Positions 4,301 to 52,600 of a stretch of 64,000 nucleotides of DNA are shown here, piece after piece (the stretch's first letter is position 1; the number at the start of each line of letters is the position of its first letter). The notes beneath the pieces are model-generated. The model was not told the DNA's origin and did not search any database. It saw only the letters and a list, made by a program, of their open reading frames with translations. The translations under genes and the position numbers were made by a program. Origin of the DNA: Podarcis cretensis (lineage: Eukaryota); assembly GCA_951804945.1 (NCBI GenBank), contig OX638154.1, positions 77,748,001-77,812,000 of the forward strand, given 5' to 3'.

Positions 4301-4517
4301 AGCGTCATAACTTTTATATGCCTGTTGTCTTTGTCCATGGAGTTTTCTTGGCAGGGATACTGGAGTGGCTTGCCGGTTCCTCCTCCAGGTGGATCACGTT
4401 TGGTCAAAACTCTCCACTATGACCTGTTCATCTTGGGTGCCCTGCTCGGCATAGTTCATAGCTTCTCTGAGTTCTTCAAGCCCCTTCGCCACGGCAAGGC
4501 AGTGATCCATGAAGGGG
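1303..4517 (-). mobile_element. Full-length Bov-B (RTE clade) LINE, ~3.2 kb
   Basis: APE domain (IGTWNVRT, LGISELKW, IIGDWNAKVG) and RT domain (FIDYAKAFD, GVRQGCILSP, LRYADD). Bov-B-type 5' UTR and short 3' repeat tail. 11-bp TSD tcattcctgct at 1292-1302 and 4518-4528. Confidence 0.97.
1308..4338 (-). pseudogene. Bov-B endonuclease/reverse transcriptase ORF, disrupted
   Basis: Three ORF pieces (3514-4407, 2643-3332, 1308-2546) join into one ORF. Breaks are a 2-nt frameshift near 3557 (KRRL-YTWTSP lost) and a TGG>TAG stop at 2643-2645 (WPED*RRSVYIPIPKKG). Confidence 0.9.
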
Positions 4518-12103: not shown

Positions 12104-13537
12104 GCAAGTTTACAGTGCCACGATTCCTTCTTGGTATCACATATACAAGTGCACAGTCACACAGAGAAAGGCTAGCATTAACTAAGCCATATCATTTCAG
12201 GCATTTTATGTACACATTCTCCATGAGGCCTGATGAATGTGCACAATGGCTGGTTATGCACAGAGACCATTCAACTCACATTACCCCTAACATATACACA
12301 CATTTTGCTGGGCATGTTCACACTTGTCACTTTTCCAGAATGGTTGTAAAAAGCAGGTTATAAAGAACAACATTGATATATATATAGAGAGAGAGAGAGA
12401 CGGACGATTTCCTCTTTCATATCTGTGAGTTACGTGAGCAATTTCCGAGTCACAACTAAAGAATGCTTTCCTATTACGGTATATGGTCAAACCTGGAATG
12501 TTTATGAGAATGTAGTTTATCGTGCCAGCAATCCATACTCATGATTACTATATCATTGGAGAAACAAGAGCAAGTCCAGGCCTGAACAGTTTCTACCTGT
12601 GGGGCTGCCTGGATTTTGATAGCTATTACAGTATATCTTGTATGCGGAAAGAATCAGAAACATAGTAGTAGGAATTTGGCTAAGGGAGACTGCATCACAT
12701 GTTCATAACATTGCATTTAAAAATAATTAAGACAGAATATTTGCCACATTATCCTAACTCAATCACCAATCGTTTTGTGTTAATCAGTATGTATTTTCTG
12801 CTGGTACACACACAGCACTCAAAGACTTTGATATAGGTAAGGGATCAGACAATAGGAATAAGCTGTTCCTCCACTGTTGTTCAGAAAGGCCCCCCTTAAA
12901 ACTGCTTTATCCTCTGTGTTTTTAGCCACATTTTAACATTAAGTCTACACTGACATGAAAACTGGTAAATCCTAGCTCAGTTGGGCTTCAGACGTAGTTG
13001 CTGACTCGGATCTGTACTGGTACATGATAGGCTATGGACTGCAGCCTTAACTACATTATCTAAAATAAAAGAGCAGTCCAGACCCTTGATCCACTGTACT
13101 GGACTGCTGGAGGGAGTCCGGATGCTATAATAATAAGAAACAGAACTCATCAATCATTAACAGCACATAGAATTCACCATCCCTGTTAAAGGTAGACCTG
13201 CTCTCATAAGACTACTGTGGGCAGGGACAGAAGTTCCAGCTTTAAAAAACCAAAACCATTCCTTGTTATCTATAAGTGTAGGAAAGAGGGGAATGAGCAT
13301 CAGGTTTTAAAATTCAAACTAAGTGTCAGGGTCTGCTCCAGACAGTGGGTAAAGAATGCCCCAGATCTTATTTTTTGTACTACAGTAACATGGGTCTGGT
13401 AGTGCAGTAGTACCAACACTCCCATACACAGCTAAAGTGGCACAGGCATGTGGAAGAAGACATTATTGGCAATGTCAAAGACTACCCCATAGGAGTCCAT
13501 AAAACTTGATACAACTATATTACATTAAGTAATGTGG

Positions 13538-13973
13538 TTTTCCCAGTAGTGATGTATGGAAGTGAGAGCTGGACCATAAAGAAGGCTGATCGCCGAAGAA
13601 TTAATGCTTTTGAATTATGGTGCTGGAGGAGACTCTTGAGAGTCCCATGGACTGCAAGAAGATCAAACGTATCCATTATTAAGGAAATCAGCCCTGAGTG
13701 CTCACTGGAAGGACAGATCGTGAAGCTGAGACTCCAATACCTTGGCCACCTCATGAGAAGAGAAGACTCCCTGGAAAAGACCCTGATGTTGGGAAAGATT
13801 GAGGGCACAAGAAGAAGGGGACGACAGAGGACAAGATGGTTGGACAGCGTTCTCGAAGCTACAAACATGAGTCTGACCAAACTGTGGGAAGCAGTGGAAG
13901 ATAGGAGTGCCTGGCGTGCTCTGGTTCATGGGGTCACGAAGAGTCGGACACGACTAAACAACTAAACAACAAC
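13538..13973 (+). mobile_element. 5'-truncated Bov-B LINE
   Basis: Encodes the RT C-terminus, nearly identical to the 1.3-4.5 kb copy (VFPVVMYGSESWT...GVTKSRTRLN); (CAA) tail; TSD aatgtgg at 13531-13537 and 13974-13980. Confidence 0.95.
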
Positions 13974-14039
13974 AATGTGGGTGTACTAGTTGGAGGGTTC
14001 TCAAGGTGGGGCTGGTGGACTTTGTCACTGTTTGGATTC

Positions 14040-18741: not shown

Positions 18742-18820
18742 ATGGCGGGCGCCGCCAATAGCAGCCGGGCGCTGCTGCTTCTCCTCTGCGCGCTGCTCTA
18801 CCTGGCGCGCCTCAGCTCAG
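18742..18820 (+). CDS. F3: F3 exon 1 coding part (signal peptide [26 protein letters not shown])
   Basis: Kozak gggATGG; donor CAG|GTGAGT. Confidence 0.92.
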
Positions 18821-21800
18821 GTGAGTCGAGGAAGGCGCGAGACCGTCGCAGCCTTCTCGCTCTTGCTCTCTCGCTCGTTCTCCTTTTTCTGGAACGCTTC
18901 GCCTCACCGGGTTGCGCGGGCGCGCAGTCTTGCGCCGCCGAGGGAGCCAGCCGGGACGCCGCTGGATTTTTGCGTGCATGGACTTGCATAAGCATGGGGA
19001 AGAATTTTTTTTCGCCGTTTTTCCAGCCGAGCTTTCCCCCTCTTGTTTATAGTACCTCGGACAGAGGGGGCTGTGCATTAAAGGGGTGCGCACTGTTGTT
19101 CTGGTTTGGGCAGACTGAAGCCACAATCCTATATGCAGATCGTAGAGTTGGAAGGGTCACCCAGGGTCATCTATTCCAACCTCCCTGCAATGGAAGAATC
19201 CAGGGGTGCCAACTTGAATAAAATATTTGGGGGCCCAGGTAAGCTGGGCCCCGCATAATCGATCACATGATGCAGCACACACACATACCTATTTGAATGG
19301 CAGTGCCCATCAACTTGGAGTGGAGCCTCTAATATTTTATAGGGGTGGAAGGGACCTCAGCCCCTAGGAGATGGACCCTGTGCACAAATTTCAACCCAAG
19401 CATCCGTGACATGATGGCTGTCCAATCTCTTGCTTTAAAACCTCCAAGGAAGGAGAGTCTGTTCTTGTGCGAGTGCATTCCACCGTCAAACAGCTCTTAC
19501 TGTCAAAAAGTTGTTCTTGGTGTTTAGTCCAAATCTCCTTTCTTGCAACTTGAATCCATTGGTTTGGGTCCTAGCCTCCCAAGCTGGAGCTACCTGGGTA
19601 CTAAGCTTAAAGGTAAAGGTAAAGGTACCCCTGCCCGTACGGGCCAGTCTTGATAGACTCTGGGGTTGTGCGCCCATCTCACTCAAGAGGCCAGGGGCCA
19701 GCGCTGTCCGGAGACACTTCCGGGTCACGTGGCCAGCGTGACATCGCTGCTCTGGCCAGAGCCAGAGCCGCACACGGAAACGCCGTTTACCTTCCCGCTG
19801 GTAAGCGGTCCCTATTTATCTACTTGCACCCGGAGGTGCTTTCGAACTGCTAGGTTGGCAGGCGCTGGGACCGAGCAGCGGGAGCGCACCCCGCCGCAGG
19901 GATTCGAACCGCCGACCTTTCGATCGGCAAGTCCTAGGCGCTGAGGCTTTAACCCACAGCGCCACCTGCGTCCCAGGGTACTAAGCTTAGGTTTTGGCTA
20001 AAAGATTACTCTTCCCAAAGTGGGAGGATGAAATAGTGTGAAAGGTATGGAGTGTGTTGGCTGTGTTTGGAAATATAGTCACTTTAAGTTATTACGAGGG
20101 ATGTTCATGATGCTCAAGGACAACATTTGTAGATATGCAAGCCTTTCAGTATTAATGTTTCCCCGGTAGAACCTTTAAAAGGAAAATAACAAAGAGGTAC
20201 AGGTTTTCAGGCATTTCTGATGGAGGCTCAAAACAGATTATTCATACATTGTAAATGGGTCGCTGGCAACAGGTGTTTTTTATTTCATTGGATTTTGTGG
20301 AAAAGGTAAATCCAGTTGGAGTGGGGAATAAGAGCTAGCATTTTGATGCTAATGTCACGTATAAAATATGCATGCATTAGCAGCACTGATCCCACAGTAA
20401 GCACCTGTGCTAGACATCTTCCTCCACCCCATTTCCCAACTTTTTTCTACAAGACCATATTCTGCCTGAAATCATTTGGCGATTCTGTGGCTTAATGGCA
20501 CTGTATTTGTCTAGTTCTATGTGATGTGTGAATTTGGTTCTTGTGGATATCACAGGAGCAGATATACTGGGGTACTATGCTATAAAATAAATGTATTGTT
20601 CAGACAGTGGAATGTGGAATTTTTGCAAATTTCATGGAATTATTAATTGTATACATCATACATCACAGACTGGAATTATGAACTGATTGTTGGATGCCTC
20701 AGAAGTGGACATTTTGAGCTGTTTTTGTTATAATGGGTTTGTCTGGAAATGATTAGTGAAATCTTGATATTGTAAGTCTTGAAATAAATATTCAAGATCA
20801 ATATTTTAAACAATTTGCACTGTTAGTTGCAACAATTTTATTGACAAAATATCTGTGCTGTCTTGCCTCACTTTCTAAAGCTAATTAGGTCACAGTGTTG
20901 TCGTCTTTAGCTGGATCTAATAAGGGTATTAGGAAACCATTCCTGCCAGTTCTCTAAACCTGAGGTTTTTTGTTCTTAATTACATAGCAATTTACTACAT
21001 TAAAAAACCCCAGTACAAAACACTTAAACTTGATCATTACCTCCTAATACCTTCCTCTTCATTTTCTGAATAGTGTATATGTTTGTTTGTTTTTATTTAA
21101 TTTTCTAATTTGGGTATTGATACATCTATTCTATAAAGAATTATTGTTAAGTGGATATACTAAGGAGTACATACTCATTGTAAACAGAATTCAGTTTATG
21201 TATAGTTTTAGTTTGTAGAATTACTTTTCTTACAATTTGTTTTTCAACAAGAATAGAAGCATGCATAACAAAATAAGATTGATGGCCCATATAGCTGAAT
21301 GTAATCTGCCAGTTTTTAATGACCAAAATCTAAATTATTGCTTCTGAAGCTTGGGAACCCTCTTAATAAAACATTTTTGTCAAGCATTAGAATGGGTTTA
21401 AAGCTTGAGGAAAATTACAGACTGTTCCCAGAATAATAAACAATGTTGTGAAGCTAAGGCTGTGAGGAGCATATAAATGTCCCTGAATAGAAAAGAAATC
21501 TGTCTGGAAGTGGAGCATAAGTAAATGAACCTTCTCTGCATATTCAGCATTGAAAAGGGGTTATTTTGCTAAGGTCCATTGATACTACCATCCTGTTCCC
21601 CATAGTGGCCAATCCGATACTACAGAGAAGCTCACAAGAAGCAGGGCATGAAGTCAATACCCCTCTCCCATTGTTTCTCCCCAACAGCTGGAGGCTCCAT
21701 ACATCCAGCCACTTATAAGACTAACTAACCATATATAGAAGGGTCTGGTGACTTCTGTTTCAGTGTATCTGAAGAAGTGTGCATGCACACGAAAGCTCAT

Positions 21801-24800
21801 ACCAAGAACTAACTTAGTTGGTCTTTAAGGTGCTACTGGAAGGAATTTTTTATTTTGTCATGAATAAATAGAATGAGAGTGTGAGTCCACATTTTCCTCT
21901 GCCAAAATTTCAGGTCAGAAATGAGAAACCTGTGGCCCTCCTGGTGTTGACTCCCAGTTCCCATCAGCACAGCTAGAATGGCCAATGGCGGGGGACTATG
22001 GGTTCTTCTGGCACAGCAGCACATCCTTTTTCTATTCTTCCCCCACATGCTCTCCAAAATCTTCTCCAGAGCTGATTTTGAGGGCACGTCAGGGTTGGGG
22101 CTTGGAGAGGAGGGGAGGGTCTCTTCTGCCAGCACAAATCTCTTGTGCCAGCAGTATGGAAGCATTGGACACTGCCCTGTGGAAGTTGTCACCCAGCAAA
22201 AAGACTACGGCAATACAGTACTTAGATATTTTGGGCATATCGACCATGCAGAATTGGACTGACTTAACAGTCACTCCTGTCCAACCCTGGAAACTAGTCA
22301 CGCGAGAGAGATTGGGACTCTTGGTGCCATCTATAAGCTTTGTGAGTGGCCATGAAACTGATAAACTGATACATTTTGTAGTTAAACCCTTAGCCATTTG
22401 TTGCACAGAAAGAACTGTGGGCCATGGGGTAAGCCATATATTGCCTGACTAATCCTTGTTCTATTTCTACTTTTAAAGGCAACTCTGAAGTAATGAAAGC
22501 AGTCAACATTACCTGGTCATCCATCAATTTTAAGACAATACTACAATGGGAGCCCAAGCCAGTCAACTATTTTTATACAGTTGAAATAGATGGGTATGTT
22601 GAACATAAACATGGAGATTGCTACCACACGTCTAGCCTGGTCTTAGTGTAGTTATTTGAAAGTAAGAACAATTGGTTTCACTGACTTTGCATGAGGCTGC
22701 AGTTTAATTCATTCTCTTACCACCCTTCGCCCCCCCAAAAGGAAAAGCAAAGCCACAGTTGAATGCAGATTTGAGAACGAAGACTTGAGATCTGAAGCTT
22801 TCTAGTCCCCCATTTAAAAAAGATATCCAGCTACATAGGCTTGAATTATGTTCCTCTTCTCCTGATTACCACAAGGCCTAATTAGTCTGTTTGCATATTA
22901 AGTAGAATTTGTTCCTAAGTAGACTGGTAATTTCTTTTTCTCTCCACATCCTCCTGTTGCCTCCAAGGCAAAAAAAAAAAGCAGTTTACATGGGATTAGC
23001 TTTAACAAGAGTGCTTGCACATGAAGGAAAGTCTACCATATGGTAATTGTAGTAGCTTTGTGCCAGTCTATCGCTGATCTGTGTAATATGCACTGTGCTG
23101 CGAGTAAGTTGTGCATGCTCTAACATAACTGAACTATGGTATCCCAGCAGCAGAACTGGGTACAACTGCTAATATTAGACCAGGAGTGGGAAACCTGTGG
23201 CCTGCCAGATGTTGCTGGACTACAGTTGCCATCATCCCTGACTATTGGCCATGCTGGCTGCGGCTGATGGGGAGTTGGAGTCAAACAACACCTTGAAGGC
23301 CACAGGTTGCCCAACCTTGTTCTAGACTCTGCATGAGTTTCAAAGTGCCTTGGGGAACACTGTTTTTCTTCTCCACTAGATCAGCTAAGCAAAGGGAGAT
23401 GATGAAGATCGATAAGTTTTAAAATGATTACTTTGGGTGCTGCTTTTGTTTTGTTTTTAAGGAAAGAGAGCTGGTCAGACAATACTGATGTAAATAGCAT
23501 TGTACTTTGTATCTGACAAGGACTGTATGGTGGTGCTTTCTGCTAACTTTCGGCAGTGATGAGGTGTACATTCTGATATTACTGCAGTTAGCCAGGTATC
23601 ACCACTTAACACACTGGTATATTCCCCACTGAAATAAAAAAAAAGGTTGCCCAGAATTGTGCCTTATGTAAAATAACTGTTTCATGATCAACATGGTATT
23701 TCTGGGGGGAAATGATCTAATTTTGATAAATACTGTGCTGCACTTACTTCAGACCTTTGTAGTTAGCTACCTGTCACTGCTAATATGCAATTTCATACTT
23801 AGTTATGTGTAATATCTAGGAATTACACTAAGGTTGTTAATGATTAACAATTCAGGAAGGGATGATAGCTCTGTGGAGAGTACACGGCTTGCATTTGAAA
23901 GTCAGATCCTGGTATTTCCAGGTAGAACTGAGAATATCACCTCTGCCACCCTGGAAAGCTGCTACCCATCATTGTCAACAAATACTGAGCTAGATGGACT
24001 GTTAGCCAGACTTGGTATAAGGCAGCTCCCTATGTTCCAGTATCAACAAAGATATCAAAGCTATGCATTTTCCCGCTACCTACTGTGTTTTAATTAACAA
24101 AGTTGTCCTATAAGTAAAGTTATTGGAAGTGGCTATTTCCTATTAATTCACAGGCATGAAACTTTTATCTCCCTAATTATACTCTTCATTGCATATTAAC
24201 ATACACAGACAAGCTCACAGCTGGTTTTGTTAATTTGATTGGACCTGTTTACAAAACAGACAAACTTCATTATAGTGAAATACATTCATTCTATGAAATA
24301 TTAGCTAATGCAGTATGCTCTTGATCTTTACAGGGACCGATTAGTTCGGAAGAAAATATGCATTCACACTTCAGCAACTGAATGCGACGTTACAAATGCA
24401 CTGAAGGATGTAAAAGATGTCTACGTTGCTCGCATATATTCCGAAGTGCCAAATAGGGACCCTGATGATTTTGATATCCCACCTTATGAAGTGTCTTCAG
24501 AGTTCATACCTTACGCCCAAAGTAAGTAAAAATATATTAGCTCTTCTTTGTTTTTCCCCCACAGCATGGGGCTCTGCACACAGATTCTAAGTCTTACAAA
24601 GTGTTGATATACTTGTCCGTGAACCAGACCTGTATAAAAGTTTATATAGAGAAGGCATCCTATCTGTCTGCTATGCAGCCCTGAAATTCACGGTTAAGGA
24701 ACAAAACATTAGTTGTGCAGGAAATCCATGCATTAAATGCAGCTGTAGGAAGGCAAGGCTAATTTGACTGGGAGCAGCAATGGTGAGAATATTTCCTCTG

Positions 24801-27800
24801 CACCATTTCCCCAGTCAAAATTGCCTTTTCCTTTGCTGCGGTTGCTGCTTGCACCATGGTAAGAAAAACTGAGGACAACCCTGTACCTCTTTCCTCCGTG
24901 TGTAGCACTATTGGTAGGAAAAATGGTGCAGCAGAGGGAAAGATTAAACATCTCCCCCCTCCTCTGCTTCAATTAAACTGGCAATGCCCTCACAGCACAC
25001 ACATATTGTTTAAATAATGCTGAGATACTAACTCGCGCAAGTGGCTGTATAACGTGTGCTTTCTCACTAGACCATCCTACCTGGGATACCATTTTGGTCC
25101 CTGCGTTTTGTACCATAGCTTGCAGAGTTTGTATCGTAGGATTCTTGTTGATGTACATTGGTTCTTACGCAGACAGGCATGCCAACCAACATGCTGGGCC
25201 CATGGAGCAAGGAGCCATAGCCAAGATCTCCCTCCCATACAAAAGACGCCAAACAGTGTCGCCTTTCATTTCTCTCTTTCTGTTGTTACTAATAACATTA
25301 TTATTTATGGCACACTGTGGTGCACTGCATTGTAAGTGCTTGTACGGCAAGCAAATCAGTCTTCAAGTCAAGTTTTGTGACAGGAGTGGGGAACCTCAGG
25401 CCCAGCGACCAAATGTCACCCTTTAGACCTAACTGCAGATTCTCCCCACACCAGCTCTGCTATGTACCCTCAAGTGCTTTTGCCTGGTGAAAATGTGTCC
25501 TTCAATTGTGATCATGCTTCTCACTTTCCTGAATGGGAGAGGTGGACAAGTAGAAACCTTTTATTTTTGTGTAGCTGAAATGTGGCCTACTGTGAAAAGT
25601 GAACACTGTTTAAATTGCTCTGCCTGCTCCACTTCCTGCTCCCCTGGAAGGCTGCCTATGATAAAGTGTGGCCCTCAAGCTGAAAAAAGTTTTCCCCTTC
25701 CCCTTCTCTATAATGCCCTAAGTCAGGGCTGTCTTAACTACCAAGAGACTGCGATCTACTCCCACTATAAAAAAACTGGCAGTGATCTACCCATTGGATG
25801 ACCAGAGTTGTTGAACTTTTTTTAGGAAGCAAAAGTTGAGATTTTTTTGGAAGCCAGAGTTGTTGAGCTTAGGCCTCCCCTAAGACATCTCCTTAATTAT
25901 GCCATGAGAATATAGCACAGCAAAGCTTTACAGCACAGTCCTGAAAGCTTACTGTGGATCTTTGGTAATAAAATCCGCTAGGATAAGGTTACCAGATTTT
26001 TTTCAATGAATCTGGGGACACTTTTCAACTTCCTACTAAATAGATGGATTTTGTCAGGGGACTGATTTGCAAATCCTGGGACTGTCCCTGGGAAATGGGG
26101 ACGTCTGGTAACTTTACGCTACGAAGTCCTTTCTGCTGGGGATAAACCGGACTGAAATTCCCAGGTGCCAGAAAAGGTTATTTATGTATGTAACAATTGA
26201 GGCCCGTGTTTTCTTAGCCCCAAAATGGAAAGTGAGCGAGGTAACTAAAGAGGATTGGCAACTTAAGTTGACAGAAAATGCACAACTTGCAGATCTAACA
26301 TACATAAAAAGAGAGCAAGAAGAGCAGATGTTTAAAGAAGACTGAAAAACATATTTTGAGTATATGGAAAGTAACTGTGTACAGTTGAAAACGCTGGCAG
26401 CATTAAAATAAATTCAACAGAGTAAATAATCCTTGATGGATGTAAAAGTGGAAAACTGATTTGAATGGTTACAGTAAAATATGCAGGGATGTATAATATG
26501 TAAAATGAACCATGGAAAGAGAAGAAGGGAAGTCATTGGATACTTTAAAGTTTGTAAAATGTTTATTTGAAATTGTAAAACAGAAAAATTAATTTAAAAA
26601 ATTAATTTTTTTAAAAAAGAACCCTGCTCGGAGTTGATTTTTAATCAGTACAAAAACCACTTCTCTTCTAGCTGAGATTGGCGTGCCAACAATCAAAAGT
26701 TTTGAACAAAAAGAGAAAACTTTGAAAGTGGAGATAGCAGATCCTCTAACGCCTTACAGATTTGAAGGAAATGGAAGCTTTCGAAGTATTAGGGACATAT
26801 TCAAAGATGATCTAGAATACACACTGTACTATTGGAAAGATCAAAGTACAGGAAAGGTGAGCATCTGTTTTCAATCTCCCAAGTCTTTAATTTCCTTAAT
26901 GTTTACAATAAGTACAAAGGACAAGCTTGCAATCTAAACTAAATTTCTACTTAAAAGAAATGAACTATAGCCTTAAAAAGAGTTCAGTACTTTAATAGTC
27001 TGGTCAGAGGCTGTTCTCCAGGTCCCCCAGCCATCTGAAGTGTGGTGCTATTGAAGAAAGGGGCTTTCAGCGGCAAAACCCTAATTTTTTGAATGCTGTC
27101 CCAAAAGAAGTTTTCCCGGTGCCTATTCTGGTGGAATTTGCTCCCACAAGTGGTAGTGATGACCCTTGACTTGCATGGCTTTAAAATATGGCCAGATAAA
27201 TTCCTGGAGGATAAGGCTATGTTCTTCCTCTGCAGTTGGAGGCAGTATGCCTTTGAATGCCTTTTGCTGGAAATCTCAAAGTGGGGGAGAGGTTCTGCTT
27301 TTGCGTTTCTCATAGATATAAGCTTAGAAAAGAATGCAGGACTAAATGGGTGCCAGCAGGAATCTTTTTAGGTTCTTATTATGCTTTTCTAGCCCTAAGT
27401 AAATACCTTCTTATCTTTACAGACTTTCAGATTAGTATTGGTCTGTTTTTATTTGGACACTACTTTTGCAGAGCTGCTGCTTTTAGCTTATTTCATATTT
27501 TATCGTGCCCTGATATTGTATTTGAATGGCATAACCCTGCAAACTCTATTATTTAATCCATAATGTTTATGCCTCTGCATAAAAAGTTAAAGGAGACCAA
27601 AGTTAACATATATTTATCTTCTTTTGTTTTTGATGTTAAAATTTTCATATTGCAAAAAGGTTAATGTTAGGTACTTAAAAGTAGAGGCTGATGCTAATAC
27701 TCTTCCTTAAATTTGTTATACATTTACAAACAGATCTATCTTTATCTTAACCTAGTTTATTTAAGTATTTGAAATATGTCGAAAGCTTCTTTCAAGAAAA

Positions 27801-29435
27801 TGGTGTTTCGAAGGCTACCTTCATTAGTAACAAATGCACAATTTTATGAACGTTAAACATTAAACATACAGTTCAATTTACAATGAAACAATCAGTTTAA
27901 ACAAACCCAGTACAACAAAATTCAACAGTCTCCAACCACCACCAGCATGCAACTATTAACTTCCTGTTCCTACAACCACTTTTTTAAATTTAATGATATG
28001 ACTATTAAGATGAAAGTACCTTTTCTCCTTTGAGCCTTTAACCTACTATGTACTTTGGACTTGCTTAATCTGTATTCAGAGTGAAGAACTACATTACTTG
28101 CAAATACATCTTCAAATACTTTTTTTCTGATTGTAGAAACAGGAAAACACAAAAAGCAACCTCTTTGAAATCCGTATCGACAAAGAGAAGAACTACTGCT
28201 TCTATGTTCAAGCTACTGTTCCATCACGCTCAACAGACCGTAGCAGTCAAAAAAGCAGTGTAAAATGTACTAGTGTTAGAAGAGATGAACTGGATGGTAT
28301 GTATCATGACACCACAAACTTTGGTATATAAATCATTCCTATCAAATTACTTTAAGCCCTTGCTGATGGATTTCAGTTTAGACTGCTTTCTGTGAAAGCT
28401 GTTGCCCAGTGATCTCTAGGTGCATTCAGGGTTTTACCTACTTCTTGCTGCTGCAAAGTTGGCACTGCAGATAGTCAGAAGTAGTTTCCTTTCCCAAAAT
28501 TGTGTTTTCATCTGGTCACTTTCTTTCTTTCACAAGGACTGTCCACTTTTCCCCTAAGAGCCAAATTCATATCCAGAAGTATCACCATCCCAGTATGGAA
28601 TTTTGTGGCATATATATTTCCCAATGCAAAACATCTAAGGCATACATATGTTAACTATGTAGCACAATTCTTTGTAAGCTTTAATCAGAAGCAAATCCCA
28701 ATCAAACTTGGCTGCCATGTCAATGTGCATATGGTTGAAGCCTTAAATGTGGAGGACCTGGAAGTCCTAGAAGGGCTGTATCACATCATTGTTCTGAATG
28801 CGTAGGTGGGTTCTAACGAACTTTTGAGTCCTGCATTGGAGCAAATCTATGTTGTTTGTTTGTTTAAGTATGAAGTAGTTTCATAAAAAATACATCATGC
28901 TTGTCAGAAGGACTGATTCCACATTAAAGGGATGTGGGCTTTTTTGAGGACTACAGACCAATTAGATGTCGCAAGAATGATGCGGGCTGCTTGGTTTAAG
29001 CAACAAACATAGGGAGCTATGTTAGAGAAGGGTTCAGTTCCATTGACCACATTGTGTATCCCAATGTTAAAACACCAGCCCTGCTTTATATATGATTGTT
29101 ACAGACATATAATTAAACTAATGTGATGCCCTGCTTAGGACTCTTAAGATTTTAGCCTTCAAGAGAAACAGCTCAACATATTTCAGGTTTGGAATCCAGA
29201 TTAGTTTTATTCTGAAAACATAGCCAATAGCTGTTGGGTGAAAAGCATGTCCTTGAACTGAATTTGTGTCTTTTCTTCTTCTTCTCCAGGTCTTGAATTA
29301 GAAGTAATTCTTATAATAGCAGCTGTTGCGGTTGGAGTCATCGCTCTAATTATTATTTTATCTGTGGTTGCATATAAATGCACAAGATCAAAGCCTGCAG
29401 CAACAAAAAAAGAGAGTGTGCCCCTAAATGCATAA
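18742..29435 (+). CDS. F3: Tissue factor (coagulation factor III), 6 exons, 290 aa: join(18742-18820,22479-22593,24334-24521,26672-26856,28137-28296,29290-29435)
   Basis: All introns GT-AG with consistent phases (873 nt). Signal peptide, [20 protein letters not shown]-x7-[28 protein letters not shown] helix, short tail KESVPLNA. Convergent with ABCD3 as in mammals. Confidence 0.97.
19138..19585 (-). mobile_element. CR1-type 3' fragment with an internal hAT-like insert (~19201-19380)
   Basis: gtagagttggaaggg...ctattccaac and cttgcaacttgaatccattgg are CR1 3' motifs; boundaries approximate. Confidence 0.5.
19610..19975 (-). mobile_element. Sauria SINE (full length, CpG-intact) in F3 intron 1
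   Basis: Near-identical reverse complement of the 10.2 kb copy; 14-bp TSD gggtactaagctta at 19596-19609 and 19976-19989. Confidence 0.95.
21740..21860 (+). mobile_element. Penelope-like element terminal (pLTR) fragment
   Basis: gaagaagtgtgcatgcacacgaaagctcatacc...ttagttggtctttaaggtgctactgg resembles sauropsid PLE ends. Confidence 0.6.
21765..21802 (+). ncRNA. Minimal type-I hammerhead ribozyme motif
   Basis: Stem I gtat/atac; core CUGAAGA 21769-21775; stem II gtgtgc-at-gcacac; GAAA 21791-21794; palindromic AGCU; UC cleavage site at 21797-21798. Confidence 0.6.
22479..22593 (+). CDS. F3: F3 exon 2
   Basis: [38 protein letters not shown]; AG/GT boundaries. Confidence 0.95.
23181..23319. mobile_element. 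hAT (Charlie/MER3-like) MITE
   Basis: Internally palindromic CAGG...CCTTG element; degenerate 8-bp TSD tattagac/ttctagac; related pieces at ~33.8, 37.2, 43.9, 58.9 and 62.4 kb. Confidence 0.6.
23858..24038 (+). mobile_element. Squam3-like SINE
   Basis: Degenerate tRNA head; tail tataaggcagctccctatgttcc. Confidence 0.6.
24334..24521 (+). CDS. F3: F3 exon 3
   Basis: [31 protein letters not shown]...[11 protein letters not shown]; AG/GT boundaries. Confidence 0.95.
26120..26620 (+). mobile_element. L1 LINE 3' fragment (ORF2 C-terminus, 3' UTR, A-rich tail)
   Basis: Reads as FLLGI...[10 protein letters not shown]...EDWQLKL...LADLT, similar to squamate L1 ORF2 ends. Confidence 0.55.
26672..26856 (+). 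CDS. F3: F3 exon 4
   Basis: [12 protein letters not shown]...[23 protein letters not shown]; AG/GT boundaries. Confidence 0.95.
28137..28296 (+). CDS. F3: F3 exon 5 (160 nt)
   Basis: [32 protein letters not shown]...VKCT; AG/GT boundaries. Confidence 0.95.
29290..29435 (+). CDS. F3: F3 exon 6 coding part (TM helix and cytoplasmic tail)
   Basis: [43 protein letters not shown]. Confidence 0.93.
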
Positions 29436-30315: not shown

Positions 30316-30671
30316 GGTAAATGGGAATAATGGAAAATTCTTGTTTCTTGAATGGAGGGAGGGTTTTTCATCGCCAGATGCTAAATGATTATGGCTTAGC
30401 GGCATGCCAATAAACTACTCATTAGTGTACATTTAATCTCAACAATGGCTCCACTTGCAGGCTTACTGTGGAAATGCATGGGTTGTACACAAGTCTATTT
30501 CTACTCTGGGTAGACCTACTGAAATTAATGAACTGAAGTTAGTGATGCCCATTAACTTCAAAAAAGTAGGACTAGCATTGAATAGAACCACATATAATAA
30601 AAATAGAAAATAGAACAGAACCAGAATAACAAACCTGGCTGTGATATGATTAACAGATGGATTTTAGGTAC

Positions 30672-31430
30672 TGTCAGAGCTGCCTCCAGGTCCCAGCTCA
30701 CAGAGGACCAACGCTAGGCTGTAGTTATGTACAAAAGTCTTTATTGAGATTCAGTCTCCATTTTAAAGCCGCAGCGTGCAGCTCTACGTCCCGACCTTAG
30801 ACCGGCGAAGTCCTGTCTGAGTCTCCTCCCCCTCCACACCAGTTTAAGACTCTCGCTTTGCTCCACCTCTTCCTAAATTCCTTTCTCCTCTGGGCCCTCC
30901 TGCCCGCTAGGGTCTCATCCTTCCTGGACTCCTCTGACGCTGACCCTGACGATTCTTGCCCCTCCTTCCGGCGGGCTTTAGGACCTGGTTCCCTATCCGG
31001 GCTACCTTCTGTGCCGCTCGCCTGTACCTTTGAACTTGGCGCGCGCGCCCAGCCTGCAACTTTCCTCTTAACCGTTAACTCGCTCTCTGATGGAGGCGTG
31101 GTCCACCCTGACTCATCTTCTCTCGCTGGTGGTGCATGTGTGGGCTCTGACACCTGGAACTCCTCCCCCCCACTACGCTCTGGTGGGGAAGCTGGTCCTG
31201 ATTTGCAACTGCTGCTCTGGGAGTCCCCGCTGGCCCCTTGCTTCTGGGGTGTCCCCCTTGGGTCGCCCCTTGTCCTGCCCATCGGCGCCCCCTTCTGTGA
31301 ATCTTCCGATTCGCTGGAGAGGCTCATGGAATCTATCGAGCTGCTGTCATATTCTCCTACGCTGCCCTCGGATTGCTCCCCCTCGCTTTCCATCTCCTCT
31401 CCTCCCTGCGCTCCCGCTGAGTCCCTGACA
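30672..31430 (-). mobile_element. Solo LTR (Ty3/gypsy-like), 759 bp, with an internal ORF
   Basis: TGTCAG...CTGACA ends; 5-bp TSD ggtac at 30667-30671 and 31431-31435; minus-strand AATAAA at 30740-30745. Confidence 0.85.
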
Positions 31431-34400
31431 GGTACATTCTCCCTTTTTTAGTGGTACAGCAATAAAACTGCTGTCACATATGTAAAGCTAAGCAGGGTCC
31501 AGTAAGGTTTCAAATTGGATGGGGAATGCCGTGTTGAGATTCCTGCATTGCAGTGTGTTGGACTAGAGGACCCTTGTGGTCCTTTTCAGCTCTGTGATTC
31601 TATATCCTTGCACTATGAGCCACCTCTGCTTTTGGCACTGAAGCAGCACCAACCTGAGGTGCAGCAGGGGACACCACAGAGATTGGGAGAAATCATGCAC
31701 AGGCAAACAGATGTGTATATTTACAAATTATTTCTAGAGCAAAAAAAGAGCAAAGTGGAACAGCTCTTCCCCAGTTCCTCCCACTGACAATCCCTCCCCT
31801 TTTAAGCCTAGTACATCTGACCCAAAGGAACAGTTCCCCAAACCTTAACTACCCTGCAATAAAAATTTATAGAGTACCAACAATAAAATGCCAGAGGAAG
31901 CTGCCTTAAACAAAGTCAGGCCAAAGTACAAGTTCATCCAGCCACAGATCTCTCCTTGACAAGGGACACGTCCAGTCCTATTCAGATTTTTTAAAAGCAG
32001 GTTTTCCAGCTGCACAAATAACCAGGCAGTCACCCCACACTAAAAACAAATGGACACAAGCTTTGCTCCCTGCTTACACCCTGTATCAGTAGTGGTATCT
32101 CCATAGGAGACAGTAGTTCTTCTCTACTAACTATACTGTCACCAACAGGACAATCCATTGGCCACTGCGGTTTATAGCACTGCTGTAAATATTGGGCATT
32201 GAGTGTGTGTGCTCCATGGCCTTGAGGAACAAAGTCAGATTCTTTGCAGGGTTGCCAAATTACAAGAACACTGCTATGATTCTTGCTACCATAGTCCCAT
32301 TGACTGAATGGGACATCAGACCAACTGAGGCTTTGCACTAGTTATAGAAGGAACACAGGGTGCAAGATGGCCTAAGTTGCAAAACCAGGAGTTGTTTAAG
32401 GCTGTTTACAGAGATGTGACAAAGCATTACGTGCCTGAAGATGAAGTAGAGGAAGCAATGCATTAACAGCATATGCTTGCACCTGTTGATACAAAACACC
32501 CTAAACAAGCTATTTTACACCTATGTTTTGCAATGCTGAACTTTCTATTTCCTTGGATATGTTAAATAACTAATTGTTGCTTCCATGTTGGCATTCATAT
32601 AAATCTAAAACCTTGTTTAGGAGCAGGAGAGTTTAATTAGTGTGTCACTAGCACAGTTGATGAAAGACAGGCTGCTGCCAAAATGCATATAATGAAAAGA
32701 ATGTGATTATGAGCTTAAGTTGGAACATGGCTCATGTGACCATTTAGGACAAAGAGCTTATGGCGTTGCACAAACCTCTCTCACACACAAACATTTCAAG
32801 ATTAGAAGGCTACTGCATTTCTGTTGCTTAAATCTCTCACCTACCTCATAATCCTGATGCTGAAGTGATGACCAGTTCAGCCGGCGCATGGTACAGAAAA
32901 TGCTATTAGACCAAATAGTTTTGATTTGGTTGGGGCGATTCAAGTTTCACAGATCTCTCGTGACTTGGTACAACTGAACTGTTCCCTTGCATCAGTTGAA
33001 CTGGCTTTGCAGACAGCTCTTTGCCAGGTTGAAGCTCTCAAGCTGCACACGTAGTCTTCCTAATAAAATGAAAAAGGCAATCTCACCTACCTGGAGATTG
33101 AAGCCCTCTTCCTGCCAAAGGGGGTCAGCCAAACCTGGAGACTTCAGGTCAGCCCTGGAGGTATAGCAACCCTGTTTCTTGTACTGTAACTTTTATAGGC
33201 ATATTAGATCCCATTTTATTTCCTCGGTACTTTCTCTATGTTTGCGGTACTCAGATGAATGTTATGCCTCATTTTTCAGGGCAGATTCCAACTCTAAGAT
33301 GACAGAAAATATAGCACGGGTCCTTGTTGCAGCCATCAGAATAGGTCACAATTATTAAAGGGAAGATTTCTAAATTTCAAAGTCCATCTAAAAACAGAGA
33401 GTGTTCGACAGATTTTCCAATGAGAGTTAGTCATGGCATCACCACTAAGAAGACACTTTTTGGGGTGGGAAGTAGTTGAGGGATTGGGAGGCTACCCTCC
33501 CTCTCCCAATTATGCTGTCTCCAGGGCTCAGGGATGAGGAGCACAGAGGGGAGAAATTACCAGGGCCCGCCCTATGACCTCACCAGGGGTTGTCCCTAGG
33601 TCTTCTTAGGTGCAAGGCAACACAGTCAATTGACCTTCCGTAACTGCTCATGTTGAAGCTTTGAACATTAATATTTGTGGTCCCCCCCTTTAAAAAAAGC
33701 CATCAAGCTACTTTACAATGAATGTGTAGCTGTAGCCATATTATAGGTATATATCAGTTGAAAAAAATTTGGTCCTTTGGATACTGTTGGGACTATAGCT
33801 CGTACTCTTCCACACCGTTGTCCATGCTGTCTGCAGTGGATGGGAGTTGGCTTCTCACATCTAGCAAGAGCTGGGTTGGTAAGAAGAAGATGCCACGAGT
33901 TTCAGCCGCTTCTGTTCTAATATGGCAACATACTGAGCCCCCCCCCCCCCATTGCTCTAAGACCAGGCGTTCTCACAGCAATGGTAGAGGGCAGATGCTG
34001 TGGTTGTGTTTTGTGACTAGGCAGGAACCCTTTGGGAGCCTCATGGAAGCTACTCTGAATGCTCTAAAGGGTGAGTGAGATACAGTACACGTGGTAACAA
34101 ACAAACAAAGAAACAAAATGGCAGTATCTGAAGCAACATCTCCTTGCTGCAAGAAGTGGAATAGATGTATAGGTGCCATCTCTGCTGCTGCTTCCAGGAA
34201 AAATTATTTGCTGTGTGGGAAGTCTTGTATGCAGTTGTATCAGAGCAAGATCCAGATCCAGAATTCTCCAGTGTTAAGATGGATGGTGTGTGCTCACTGC
34301 AGCTACCCTTTGCTATCTTTTATCTGTAGCTAGATGTGTGTTCAGCAATCATATTATCCTTTGACTGTAGCCATTGCGTGCCTGAATCCTTGCTCCAGTA

Positions 34401-43600: not shown

Positions 43601-46600
43601 ACACACACACTCCGGCCCACCAGGAGGTTTGTGGTGTGCTGAACCGGCTTATACTTGAGTCAGTAAGTTTTCCCAGTTTTTTGTGGTAAAATTAGGTGCC
43701 TCGGCTTATATTTGGGTCGGCTTATACTCGAGTATATATGGTAATTCAAACTATAGCACTGGCATAGAACTACAAATTCATCCCACAACCCTCAAGACGG
43801 CATCAGCGTCCTTATGATCTTTGCATGTGGCACTCCAGTAAACACTTTTTGCATGTATAGCCAGGGTGGGGAACATATGACCCTCAATATGTTGCTGGAC
43901 TACAGCTCCCATAATCCCTGACTACTGGCAGTGTTAACTGTGGCTGATGGGTACTGGAGTCCAATACCATCTGGAGACCCACAGGTTTTAGGTTTCTCCT
44001 GCCGTTAAAAGGGTGAGAAAGCAGGTGATGGAGAGAACCTTGGTTGAGATCCTGGAGAGCCACTATCAGTCAGAGTAAATATTGGGCAAGATGCTCAACC
44101 GAGTCTCACATGGAGAAATAAACCTTCCTAAGCCACCGTTCTTTCAGATATGCCAAAAGAAAAACACAAGAACACTATCCTCTCCTGTGGTTTCCAGCAA
44201 CTGGCATTCAGAAGCACCGCTGCCTCCAACTGTATTCATATTTAAAACTGGACAATTTTGCTCATATTTAATATCGGACAACAGCTTTGTTGCTGCCAGG
44301 CCTGAGGAATTCCCCCGCTCCCCTCCCAATAGTTTCAAGGAGCCAAGAGGAAACAAGATAGCTTTATTATTTATTCAGTCTCTACGATAACAGACAAGAA
44401 TTCACGTCTTGCCACCATAATGACGTTGCTCACTCTGACTCCTCCTCCTTCCCTCTTTCCCAGCAACACGTGTGCTCCTACGGAGTCTTCCCTTGGACAA
44501 ATTCCTCTGCATATGATGCTCTTGTACCCTTAAAGACCTTCGTGTTCGAGGGGAATGTAGATCATCTATGCTGTCTAATGAAATGTCCGCAATCAGCCCC
44601 ATTTCTGTTCCTGCTTCTGTTAAATCCTCATAACTTGGCTGTTTGCTAGCCTCTGCCTGATTATCTTCCTCATAGCTTGGCTGTAAATCAACACTCTCTC
44701 CCTCTTCCCTGTCAGTGGCAGGAGAAGGGAGAGGTGATCTCACCCACTTTTCAGTCTCTGCATTCCTGTCCCTGACAGCTGTTCTTAAAACAATTGGTGT
44801 CTAGTCCTCAGTGTGGTGCTGGAAAATATAAACATTTTATAAAACAACAGTGTAAAGACCACATACGGCCATCCTCTGTTTCTCTCCTCCACTGAGAACA
44901 TCCATCCAGTCCTGAACACTATCCCAGCCTCCTTCACGGTCCAGGATCTGACCCAACTGGACATTGTCCAAGTACTCCTTTAACACCTGGAAGCAAAACA
45001 GCATAAGTCAACGGGCTTGAAAATGTACTTGTTTTATGACTTATTTCAGTTTTCTCCACTATTTCCACCTCCAAAGGATGTTGAGATGGTCAGGATCAAA
45101 ATGTTTGATCACATACTGAACAACACCAAGCCCTGCCAGCAAACTGGAGTGACTACTTTTCATTGCTGTCCATCCCATGCACTGAAGCTGAATGGAAGTT
45201 CACGCTGCTCATTATGCCAAAAAACAAAAACCAACCTCACAGTAGTTCTAAAAATTGTTCGGCCTTTAACACTACTGCCAAGAGGAAGCCTGGCCGCCAC
45301 TTTCTCCTGAACCTCCCCCCCCCCCACTCCCCTGAGATGGGCAAAGCCATTCGCACTGTGGAATGGCACTAAATCTCTCACCTTTTGGCATTGAGATAGG
45401 ACAGGAAGCAATCAGAACTTCTGCTTCACATGCATTTGGGCTCCCCAATTAGGGACGTAGCAGTGGGGAATCGACCCCTTTGTGTATCTTGACTCCCATC
45501 TTGAGTGGAAAGCAGAGCACAGGGACCACGAGAATAAAGGATGTAGCAGCAGCCATTATGCCACTACTAGTTTGGGCTGCATGTGGAGCTATCTTGCTTC
45601 ATCTGCCTTTAAGGCCCAATAGCGCTAAAGGAGATGTATTACACATGCCAACTACTATAATGGAACTTGCCTATCCATCTTTCCCCCTTTCTCATGTACC
45701 CTGTGTTTAACTTCAGTGGTGTTTAACTTCAGCCAGATGCTATAGTATTCACCACACTGCAACTACAACAAAATTGGTTGCATGAATTGGCCATGGCTTC
45801 AATCAAATGAAGTTTACTTACGAAAAAGAAGCAGCACAGCTATACTGTCAAATGCTGTATGAAAGTTTTGGTTTTCCTGCTGTTTCTAATGTTTACCTAA
45901 GTTTATAGTGAACTTCAGCTTTTACAGCAAAATAATAATAATAACTGGGACATTGTTTTACCTGGTCAGAAATTCCTTTCCTTCTCTGGTCATCTACGGT
46001 ATCTGGATAGATGACTTGGTCTCTGAGCGTTCCAAGAGTCATATATGGTCTCTGAAAGTAAATTGCCAGGAATCAGGGCAACTTGATACACATTTTTAAA
46101 AGCAACAAGAAATGCCAAAGGCTATGGCAGTTGGCTTTACCTGAGGAACATAAAACAGCTTTCCTCTCTCAGGCTTAGTCAGACAGCCACCAAACAGGGG
46201 CCACAACTGCAAAGATAAAACAAATAATAAAATTCAATGAATTGTGTTTTGCGCCTTTTGATGTTAAAGGTATACTTACTCCTGCATTTACTTACCTCAC
46301 CAAGGACACGGAAGAGAGAACTCTTTCCACACCCATTTGGCCCACAAATCAGAACATTTGCACCGGATCGTACCTGGAATGCAAATCATGTATTTAAATA
46401 TTTTGAAAAAAGGACTATGAGCAATATGGGTAACTGCTTAGTTTTTATTTGTATCTCAGCTCAACCTACTGTATTAACCAGGTCTCCTTATACTGTATTA
46501 ACCACTGAATAAAATTGTTGCTCCACAATGTTCTTTAAAGCGTGAGCACTCAAAATGGAAAACTTCAAATGAGTTGCCAAAAAAAAAATTAAAAAAAATT

Positions 46601-49600: not shown

Positions 49601-52600
49601 CGAGCGGTGAACCTAGAAGTTAAAAAAAGGACACCTTATTAAACTGAAAAGGCATTACTAAATATTCTTCAAAAAATAAAGTGTTTCAAAAAGCTAATTA
49701 AATTACCAAAACAGCTTAAAATGAAGGTGCAATAATGCAAGCAAGTTATATTTACAAATTAGACTAGTTCACAAATCACATTAAACTATTTTTTCCATTA
49801 ACTATGATTTACATGGTGAACAAGGAATATGCTAATGCATGCTGTTAAAAAGTTCTCTCTCCACTCCTCCCCACCCCATTGGGAAGAGGCCAGATCCTGG
49901 CTTGTAACGATGTCTGAACCTCGGTTCATGATTTGTTTCCTCCAAATAACCACAAGTGGTAAGCCAAAAAGAAACCTTGCTTACCATTCATGGCTTGCAT
50001 AGAAACAAACCATGAGTCCAGGTTCATACGTCACAACAAGCCACACCCTGACAGCTATACATTATTGGGAAGATAATGGCAATAGTACATATTAATGGTC
50101 TTACCCAGCCAACCGTGTCATTTCACGGCCTGCGAGAACTATCCTGCCAAGTGCTTGAGACATTCTCAGTAACATTCTTCCACTTTGGTAGTAATCCTTA
50201 AAGTGACAAAATGCGGGGTTGATCATGAGTAAGTGAGCAAATTGCATGCTGTCCACTGTAACTCAGCTCAGAAGCTTATTGCTTACCTCCAAAAGTTCCG
50301 CATGGGTACTATTCTGATGGCGAGGATGAGACAGGTTCAAAAACGGACGGCTAACAACCAGATAGCCAACGACAGTCGCAAGGTCTGAAATATTTTTTAG
50401 AAGTTTATTTCAAAGACAGCTATGAATACAAGGTTACAATGATTCTGAGGAAGATACATGGAGCCAACACTAAGCAGCAGCATGCAACTCTATTCTTCAC
50501 TTCTCGTCAAACCCACCTGTTAGACTCATTTCAGCTGGGTTTGTAGTTGTTTGGATCCAAGAAAGTGTGAGTGGAACTACGCTTGTGCTAGGCTACTTTT
50601 CCACACACCCACTCCTGACTAAAGAACCCCAAACATTTGTTCCGAGGGTTGGAGAGGACTGTCTTTGATGTGACATGATAGAGGTGCTACAAAGGAGTGG
50701 ATTATCTGTGGAAATGGGATAGCGGAGAAGTGCCCTTTGGCTTCTACAAGGTGTTTTTGGATCTAAGCTAACCAGTAGTCTTGTCAGGGCAGGACTTTGG
50801 GGCAGAAGTTAAGGGGATCTACTCCACAAAATGAGGAGGGTGCCCAAACACAGCAGAGTTGGCTGATGAAGTAAGTACCATCTAATTGAGTACACCACTA
50901 AGTGCACCACTGAAGTCAACAAATTAAGAGTGAGGTTATTATACTTCTTCTTCTTCTTCTTCTTCTTATTATTATTATTATTATTAATCATCATCATCAT
51001 CATTAAATAAATTTGTTAGTCGCTCTATCTTGCCAAGGACAACCTAAAGTGACTTCCAGCCAACTCCCCGCGCCCCAACCACTAATGCAATTGATTTTTC
51101 CTCCGGTGCAATTATCACACAAAAGGGCGAGGAGTGTTATGCACACTTACATTCGGAGAAGTTATGCACACTTACATTTGGCAACAATGGTATCTATGAA
51201 GCCCATAGTAAACCGGAACAAGATAAAATTGTGCAAGTGCTCTACCTATTGAAATGGGAAAAAGGGGGAGAATTATTTCAAGAGATTCTATATATTTAAA
51301 GCACTTAATCGATAGCTTCTAAAACAGTCTACTTCTCTGCCAAGCCAGCATTAAAATATATGTACATTTCTAGGAGCAATAAGAAAACAAATGTTGAAAC
51401 ACACTACAGTGCACAAGAGGGAATTGTTCCACCAAGGTTGGGCACTCCATATCCAATATCCCCCTTTTGGCAAGCTTGAAAATCCCAACTTCCGTTTAAA
51501 AAGGATGACTAGCCTTCTCACAAGTAATGCTAAGAAAACACATGGGAAAGGGTAATATGTATTTGCACGCACAATATTACGATAGGATTGTGCAGTGGAT
51601 TAAAAACAAACAAACCCAAATCCTTGGCCAAAGATAGGGTGCTTCAGAGGGATGTGTGAGCTGTATGAGGTACATTAAAGTGAATGGGTAAACACCTCCT
51701 GAAGCACTTTCTGGTGCCTTAGCAACTTGGATGCAAAAAACAAAAAACTGCTGCAGGCAACTTGTCTGCTAAAAGTAAAACTAATGAATCTAAGCATACC
51801 ACCTCAGAAAAAGGTCCGGGTGGAGTGAGGCAGTGCAGACACCGAGGTGGGGAGAGAGAGCACTGAATATCAGTGCGGCAGTGGGATGGCTGTGAGGAGC
51901 ATAATTTCCCATGGAGTTATGATGGGTGGGTGCTCAGCACTTCCTTAGCCTGCTTTCTTTCCAACTAGGCTCACTTCCACTCTTAAAGCCCAGCTGGGGA
52001 AGCAGCAAGCAGAAGGGCCCAGCACCCCGACTCATACCTTCATTGGGTGGAAATCTCACCCCTATCACTTACTGCGGTTGGGTGGTAATACATGTTTGAA
52101 AGCACAGGTCTGCCACTGTCTTGTTCAGTTCTGCCCATATTCCAATATACCGTATTTTTCACCCTATAGGACGCACTTTTTCCCCTCCAAAAATGAAGGG
52201 GAAATGTGTGTGCGTCCTATGGGGCGAATGCAGGCTTTCGCTGAAGTCTGGAGAGCGAGAGCATTCTCCAGGCTTCAGGAAGCTATCCGCAAGCCTTGGG
52301 AGCCCGCGGGAGTTCCCGCCGGGCTCCCACGGCTTGCGGATAGCAGCCTGCATCCCGAAGCCTGGGGTGCGCTGAACTCAGCGCGCCCCGGGCTTCGGGC
52401 AGATATCCGCAAGCCTGGGGAGACCGGCGCGACTTCCCGCCGGGCTCCCTAGGCTTGCAGATAGCAGCCTGTTCTGTGGGCTGGGGAAGCTCGGGCCTCC
52501 CTCGCCCCAGGGGGAAAAATAATTTCCCCCCCTTTATTTCCCCCCCCCCCAAAAAAACTAGGTGCGCACTATGAGCCGGTGCGCCCTATGGGGCGAAAAA

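Follow-up and report, generated by a model that had tools for sequence, protein, structure and literature searches.

The open reading frame that nearly fills a solo LTR in the window, the 64,000-nucleotide stretch of Podarcis cretensis DNA analyzed here, is the C-terminal tail of a Pol/integrase protein and not a separate gene. We base this assignment on full-length copies of the retrotransposon family to which the LTR belongs, which we denote family A, because in these copies the pol frame is continuous across the polypurine tract (PPT) into the 3' LTR. Purifying selection acts on the LTR frame (dN/dS ~0.3, with dS reaching 1.2), and the layout with an LTR-coded tail is kept in four related lineages, including family E, whose Pol is 61% identical to that of the window family. 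We are nearly certain that the frame encodes a functional Pol tail. Our model as a whole, to which we assign a probability of roughly 70%, is that of a selected, predicted-disordered integrase tail that is encoded in the LTR and likely gives nuclear import and chromatin tethering.

The window LTR occupies positions 30672 to 31430 on the minus strand. It is a 759-bp solo LTR of a young Ty3/gypsy family with TG...CA ends, and is flanked on both sides by the 5-bp target-site duplication GTACC (upstream copy at 31431-31435, downstream copy at 30667-30671, minus strand). The first-pass annotation had described this LTR as almost filled by a frame open from LTR nucleotide 2, with a product that is first acidic and then basic, and both descriptions hold: the frame runs for 210 codons without a stop (30797-31429 on the minus strand with its stop, which lies at 30799-30797; Pol residues 1354-1563), an AATAAA poly(A) signal follows at LTR nucleotide 686 (30740-30745, minus strand, in R), and the net charge of the product per 30 residues passes from -8 to +6. 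The mean longest ORF in dinucleotide shuffles of the LTR was 107 codons, and 210 codons or more were reached in 10 of 2000 shuffles when the three sense frames were considered and in 28 of 2000 when all six were. The GA-rich composition, which had been raised as a possible cause of the ORF length, thus lengthens ORFs in this LTR without explaining 210 codons. A Pfam scan of the ORFs of this LTR and of a second LTR at 44294-44777 matched no family, and a weak match to MTBP_C (E 0.15) was put down to composition. The antisense ORF of the family A LTR is also open for 210 codons, but in only one of eight related LTRs, and we rejected it as a candidate.

On the opposite, plus strand, the window contains a tissue factor (F3)-like gene at 18750-29435, with Pfam Tissue_fac and fibronectin-type exons at 24334-24521, ~26670-26860, and ~28140-28300. 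The solo LTR lies antisense to this gene, ~1.2 kb beyond its apparent stop codon and ~75 bp beyond the last of its three plus-strand AATAAA signals. Other repeats in the window include a near full-length LINE at 1308-4534 (minus strand), presumably RTE/BovB-like, whose endonuclease and reverse transcriptase (RT) frames carry at least one stop and at least one frame change, and a related 440-bp piece at 13535-13974. GC-rich MITE-like elements (long terminal inverted repeats, internal 82-120-bp repeats) and a 24-bp tandem repeat are found at 52143-52608, 54812-55515, 57061-57503, and 57844-58014.

When the 1.5-Gb genome was searched with the family A LTR, all 40 of the matches scored were ~100% identical, and many were paired 5801 bp apart. 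Ten full-length copies, 6559-6560 bp long, each have identical 759-bp LTRs, and nine of them have an exact 5-bp target duplication. Besides gag, they have a 1563-aa pol frame that ends in the 3' LTR, in which Pfam recognizes protease, RT, RNase H, integrase, and SH3 domains in the Ty3/gypsy order, with nothing matched beyond residue 1116. Neither a further long sense ORF 3' of pol nor an env ORF was seen in these copies. Family A thereby shows the paired TG..CA LTRs, target duplication, and gag followed by PR-RT-RNase H-IN without env that define Ty3/gypsy elements, and Pol proteins of this type are named in UniRef as Podarcis "Gypsy retrotransposon integrase-like protein 1". The frame from LTR nucleotide 2 is open upstream across the PPT in all ten copies, and in eight of them the pol frame has no interruption from the gag-pol overlap and its slip site onward. 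One of the two readings offered in the first-pass annotation, that the pol frame continues past the PPT into the 3' LTR, is therefore directly borne out. By our own tally across the genome, 93 of 137 scored integrase matches have a pol open frame of 1563 aa.

At G GGA AAC, gag and pol overlap in the -1 phase and a stem-loop follows (z -2.84); from this arrangement we infer that Gag-Pol is made by frameshifting. No tRNA primer site was found in family A, the tRNA-Met primer binding site (PBS) of the CRM type being absent. The 11 nt just 3' of the 5' LTR are complementary to LTR nucleotides 613-623 (30808-30818 in the window, minus strand), and complementarity of 10-11 nt between PBS and LTR segment is found with co-varying sequence in lineages A, B, C, and E. 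The same arrangement is described for Tf1, in which the PBS is complementary to an 11-nt LTR segment, in extracts from PMC7175516 and PMC4600332. This complementarity places the probable RNA start, and with it the probable U3/R border, near nucleotide 613, 29 nt after a TATA-like TTAAA (30843-30847, minus strand) that overlaps tail codons and may serve as a promoter element. Because the tail stop lies 19 nt past the inferred start, the ORF covers all of the inferred U3; and because the ORF lies upstream of that start in a 5' or solo LTR, the LTR's own promoter would not transcribe it. The R-U5-PBS fold of family A is no more stable than shuffles (z -1.17), and its minimum-energy structure includes the 11-bp priming helix. 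Family A is a very young Ty3/gypsy family of the self-priming Tf1/sushi type.

The family A Pol tail that follows the chromodomain is 360 aa long, including the 210 codons inside the LTR. Among integrase homologues the corresponding tail has a median of 15 aa (113 of 115 homologues aligned) and reaches at least 150 aa in 10, three of which are family E proteins. An alignment of nine natural tails reveals a conserved Ser/acidic run (SSESEDSQKGAP, 31283-31318, minus strand), possibly a phosphorylation-regulated motif, an SGPASPPE block (31178-31201, minus strand), an EPGxKARR block, and a basic segment with S-x3-[LV]L-x-W at its end; a basic tail end of the S-x3-LLxW type is also present in family E. 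A single-sequence AlphaFold2 model that includes the tail has a mean pLDDT of 41 and is of low confidence apart from one predicted basic helix near the C-terminus (model residues 488-506, with pLDDT ~86 for residues 491-500; 30854-30910 in the window, minus strand), which is a candidate nuclear-import or nucleic-acid-binding segment. We consider a role for the tail in nuclear import somewhat probable. A motif scan returned no motif specific to the sister lineage B, and the one [FYH]xLxP match was common to A, B, and C.

Most of the 120 integrase homologues among the matches listed contain the chromodomain family PF00385, and by its RT and integrase family A groups with elements that bear a chromodomain. 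Family E Pol keeps a Pfam Chromo domain (E 3.5e-11). No Pfam Chromo match was found in family A Pol. The region after its SH3 domain weakly matches CDYL2 (E 0.11), whose cage positions Y, W, and Y align with N, R, and A in family A; family B has the same non-aromatic pattern. Family A thus seems to have a degenerate chromodomain before its tail, with three aromatic cage residues lost, and this loss makes the tail the best candidate for a chromatin tether.

Identical copies dominated an integrase protein search of the genome, and subfamilies were found through PPT-LTR junction patterns, the first of which gave unrelated sequence in four of six matches. In the sister lineage B, the tail frame is open for 218 codons in 21 of 21 copies; in lineage C, the full frame of 232 codons is present in only four of eight loci, with locus L103 stopping at codon 194. 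The LTR-tail dN/dS is 0.34 (0.21-0.48) between A and B, at dS 1.20, and 0.31 (0.19-0.46) and 0.44 (0.28-0.69) between A and two C copies. Among seven open tails, 20 of 21 pairs gave values of 0.24-0.48; the outlier, A against a near-identical copy (L118/L143; 1.12), is due to an out-of-frame patch in that copy's 3' LTR. Copy L128, in which no LTR end was found, was left out of the tail comparison. Elsewhere in Pol, dN/dS is 0.03 in RT-RNase H and 0.27 in the part of the tail that precedes the LTR, the misaligned broken frames in the integrase-core rows of L139 and L140 and the SH3 row of L140 having been left out of the comparison by domain. Between A and B, divergence is greatest in the tail (48% identity); their integrase core, SH3, and chromodomain are 78-88% identical. 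Both of the measures that the first-pass annotation had pointed to, dN/dS and indel length, agree with coding: the A-C indels inside the ORF are +3 and +63, whereas those in the non-coding part of the LTR are +1 and -1. In addition, the third codon position was the most changed in eight of eight frame-blind alignments (p<0.05 in six), and in neutral simulations at 0.45-1.2 substitutions per site the tail frame stayed open in 0-2 of 1000 runs. Part of the conservation near the C-terminus may reflect promoter constraint, since the TATA-like box and the priming segment lie there.

The layout extends beyond these close relatives. In family E, with LTRs of 407-410 bp, pol reads 100 codons into the LTR in nine of the 12 copies parsed cleanly, the other three having mis-called LTR borders, and the tail frame stops 22 nt past that family's own priming segment. 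A solo LTR of the family E type (L210:384-720) has a stop inside the tail frame. In a Pol tree built from 27 of 33 rows, with six left out and without a named reference such as sushi-ichi, the A/B-type and E-type Pols form one clade (support 100/100). Three Podarcis muralis proteins, P0001, P0014, and P0041, terminate where the family A tail does.

Could the open frame nevertheless be a by-product of a GA-rich, T-poor LTR and a young family, without any protein function? The long ORFs of the shuffled LTRs lean that way, and the scored family A copies are near-identical and so non-independent; but this explanation is already contradicted by dN/dS values near 0.3 with intervals below 1, by the third-position excess and triplet indels, by frames still open at dS above 1, and by the shared layout of family E, and we regard it as extremely unlikely. 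The other reading in the first-pass annotation, an accessory protein encoded by the LTR and starting from the ATG at 31393, had been compared with MMTV sag and HIV nef, which are separate genes with their own starts that overlap U3. Family A has a U3 coding overlap in common with these genes, but its frame continues from pol without a conserved ATG. In most sister copies the ATG 31393 codon reads T, A, or V, and the ORF is upstream of the inferred start of transcription; we therefore do not uphold this claim in its original form. Broader versions would make such a protein from a spliced RNA or release it from Pol by protease. By its length the tail could be an independent protein, protease release is compatible with the sequence, and a donor-like GTAAG lies just 3' of the 5' LTR in A, B, and C. 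Yet no stop separates the tail from pol, selection is alike on the two sides of the LTR border (0.27 and 0.34), and the GTAAG overlaps the self-priming site and is replaced by GCAAT in family E; we judge a separate accessory protein quite improbable in any of these forms.

The second LTR in the window, an old solo LTR at 44294-44777 (minus strand) of what we denote family D, had been described as related to the first and of the same layout. It is a real LTR and does contain a 124-codon frame from nucleotide 2, but the description is only partly borne out: it shares only two 10-nt words with the LTR at 30672-31430, and the frame is mostly broken, with more than 100 open codons in only two of 14 other family D copies. 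Copies of this family are 65-83% identical to it. No matching pol adjoined family D LTRs at 30 loci, nor was there a shared internal flank, and the pattern searches for family D gave three matches without a PPT-linked internal region and, with a second pattern, only two copies. A third-position excess (504 against 406 and 436, in comparisons that are non-independent) is at most a hint of a past coding role for the family D frame. Exons at 44880-46206 (minus strand) read like those of a gene that we take to be the peroxisomal transporter ABCD3; the old LTR lies just past one of them in the same orientation, and a 30-aa exon in this interval has no Pfam match.

The related lineages have different insertion landscapes in one genome: E is dispersed, A is subtelomeric, and B is telomeric. 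Ten of the 21 B copies first examined adjoin telomere repeats. Genome-wide, 226 LTR ends are directly followed by two telomere repeats, compared with none for a reversed-pattern control, and among the matches listed 98 of 100 such ends are of the B type and two of the A/C type. In all, we counted 386 PPT-LTR junctions and 729 LTR ends for B, and 1979 ends of the A/C type. Of the first 100 B junctions, 50 lie within 100 kb of a chromosome end or in two internal arrays; internal arrays of B and telomere repeats were observed near C2:4.62 Mb and C3:121.8-121.95 Mb. In the 180 kb made up of the C6 left end (1-90000) and the C13 right end (57580598-57670597), B accounts for 154,980 bp (86%) and telomeric repeat for 16,236 bp, and both contigs end inside a B element. 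Within the telomere arrays B is found in both orientations with short TTAGGG spacers. Internally deleted variants of B recur (L257, L269, and L272), which suggests mobilized non-autonomous forms, and LTR pairs 3529 bp apart were seen at C1:3.70 Mb, C2:126.61 Mb, and C3:66.20 Mb.

Of 137 family A copies, 33 lie no more than 600 kb from an end, a 16-fold enrichment over expectation that holds for left and right ends. Several end-proximal copies lie in satellite arrays, and part of the enrichment may come from segmental duplication. Copies L187-L188 (C1:1-25000), L196, and L198 are embedded in a 46-bp tandem repeat and a ~250/490-bp subtelomeric satellite. At the C1 left end, a telomeric array directly adjoins the final 56 nt of a family A LTR in two places (L189:957-1012 and L193:974-1029), which may record a healed break followed by subtelomeric duplication. 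For family E, one of 150 scored copies lies within 600 kb of an end, these copies being older and picked by similarity to a P. muralis query.

B insertions in telomere repeats occur in a fixed GTTAG/CTAAC register. A weak preference for A at -3 and T at +3 of the insertion site is common to A and B and explains this register. With 8.4 of 25 positions matching, interstitial B sites resemble the telomeric site no more closely than A sites do (9 of 25). Since interstitial B sites are not telomere-like, and given the shared A(-3)/T(+3) preference, we do not favor an integrase that reads the telomere-repeat DNA sequence; tethering seems the more plausible route.

Two explanations compete with tail-directed insertion for these landscapes. 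The abundance of B in telomere arrays could reflect a handful of insertions multiplied by recombination, relaxed selection, or errors of assembly, for which one could cite the one-orientation runs of copies at some ends (C3 left end), a single internal deletion that recurs in three telomeric copies at two ends, the two contigs that end inside an element, and the existence of subtelomeric duplications (L189, L193). We examined 20 telomeric regions, of which 17 have a full element (L154, L158, and L161 being left out). These 17 copies and 20 full-length interstitial copies are just as different inside each group as across the two groups (means of 22, 23, and 23 substitutions, with none within 1) and interleave in a tree, which argues for independent insertions; 16 of the 17 have exact 5-bp duplications with repeats on both sides, the copies occur in both orientations, and the similarly sized and more numerous A/C LTRs make up only the two of 100 telomere-flanked ends noted above. 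Amplification is in our view improbable, if slightly less so than an accessory protein. The more serious competitor accepts the tail as a genuine Pol extension but confines it to nuclear import, particle assembly, or chaperoning, and leaves site choice to the degenerate chromodomain, the SH3 domain, or the integrase core. These domains, too, separate A from B at 12-22% of their residues and could hold the targeting determinant; family E has an LTR-coded tail and is dispersed all the same; and the basic clusters are the best-kept feature of the tail across lineages. Against this, the tail is the part in which A and B have diverged most while still under selection, the chromodomain cage is lost in A with the same non-aromatic pattern in B, and family E, which keeps its Chromo domain, has a much shorter tail. 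We put site choice outside the tail at somewhat below an even chance. That the tail itself is the targeting determinant is a tentative proposal drawn from these sequence comparisons, with the odds somewhat further against it.

Our preferred model, an LTR-coded integrase tail with roles in import and tethering, would work as follows. The RNA would start at LTR nucleotide 613 and prime itself, and a -1 frameshift at G GGA AAC, with its stem-loop, would yield Gag-Pol. The copy of U3 at the 3' end of the RNA would be translated as the end of Pol, such that U3 DNA would be promoter and coding sequence at once, and the tail would be a candidate tether that sends A to subtelomeric satellite DNA and B into (TTAGGG)n. 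The solo LTR in the window would be a passive copy whose ORF is not transcribed by its own promoter.

How does this compare with known systems? The vertebrate Tf1/sushi-group chromoviruses resemble family A in their gag-PR-RT-RH-IN order, GPY/F-SH3 region, chromodomain position, 5-bp duplication, and lack of a visible env ORF, but family A differs in its tail (360 aa compared with the homologue median of 15), in the 210 LTR codons that span the whole inferred U3, and in its degenerate cage. Extension of pol into the 3' LTR is already known in plant CRM/chromoviruses, and the case in the window is a dual-use LTR variant of it. We liken family A to plant CRM group A by this layout and not by the sequence of the CR motif; unlike that group, family A has an animal host, primes itself rather than using a tRNA-Met primer, keeps a degenerate chromodomain upstream of the PPT, and, with its sister B, shows telomeric or subtelomeric enrichment where that group is centromeric. 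Extracts on yeast elements describe a sizeable disordered module at the C-terminus of Ty1 integrase (PMC8487063), nuclear localization signals in Ty1 and Ty3 integrases (PMC7175516), and a short targeting domain that brings Ty5 integrase to telomeric heterochromatin through Sir4 (PMC7175516). In those extracts the integrase signals are not reported as LTR-coded, and Ty1 and Ty5 belong to the copia group. The target of Ty5 is silent chromatin close to telomeres; B, by contrast, lies inside the TTAGGG repeats in a fixed register. Chromosome ends dominated by retrotransposons, as with B, are described for TRAS/SART in silkworm and HeT-A/TART/TAHRE in Drosophila in parts of a review (PMC6719617), in which Ty5, HeT-A/TAHRE/TART, and TRAS/SART are the only telomere-targeting elements given. 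The TRAS/SART and HeT-A/TART/TAHRE elements are insect non-LTR retrotransposons, while B is a vertebrate LTR element inserted in both orientations with interstitial sites that are not telomere-like. Among the papers listed by literature searches, no title or abstract described a whole-U3 Pol tail in a vertebrate element or an LTR element inside vertebrate telomere repeats; for each, an earlier description in Repbase or Dfam is possible.

The boldest extension of this model is that a clade of self-priming Ty3/gypsy elements in lacertid lizards turned the whole U3 promoter into an evolvable integrase targeting tail, and that divergence of this tail redirected B into the (TTAGGG)n arrays, with A going to subtelomeric satellite DNA; we consider this speculative and rather unlikely. 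If it were true, chromosome ends in this species would consist mostly of LTR retrotransposon with short telomeric spacers, and B would stand beside TRAS/SART and Ty5 as their vertebrate LTR equivalent, carrying a small, portable telomere-homing peptide. The LTR is a clear example of promoter DNA on which selection also acts at the protein level, and the E, A, and B landscapes in one genome provide a natural comparison for how an integrase is aimed. The finding also bears on how telomeres function when they are interrupted every few hundred bases, on the measurement of telomere length in lizards, and on annotation.
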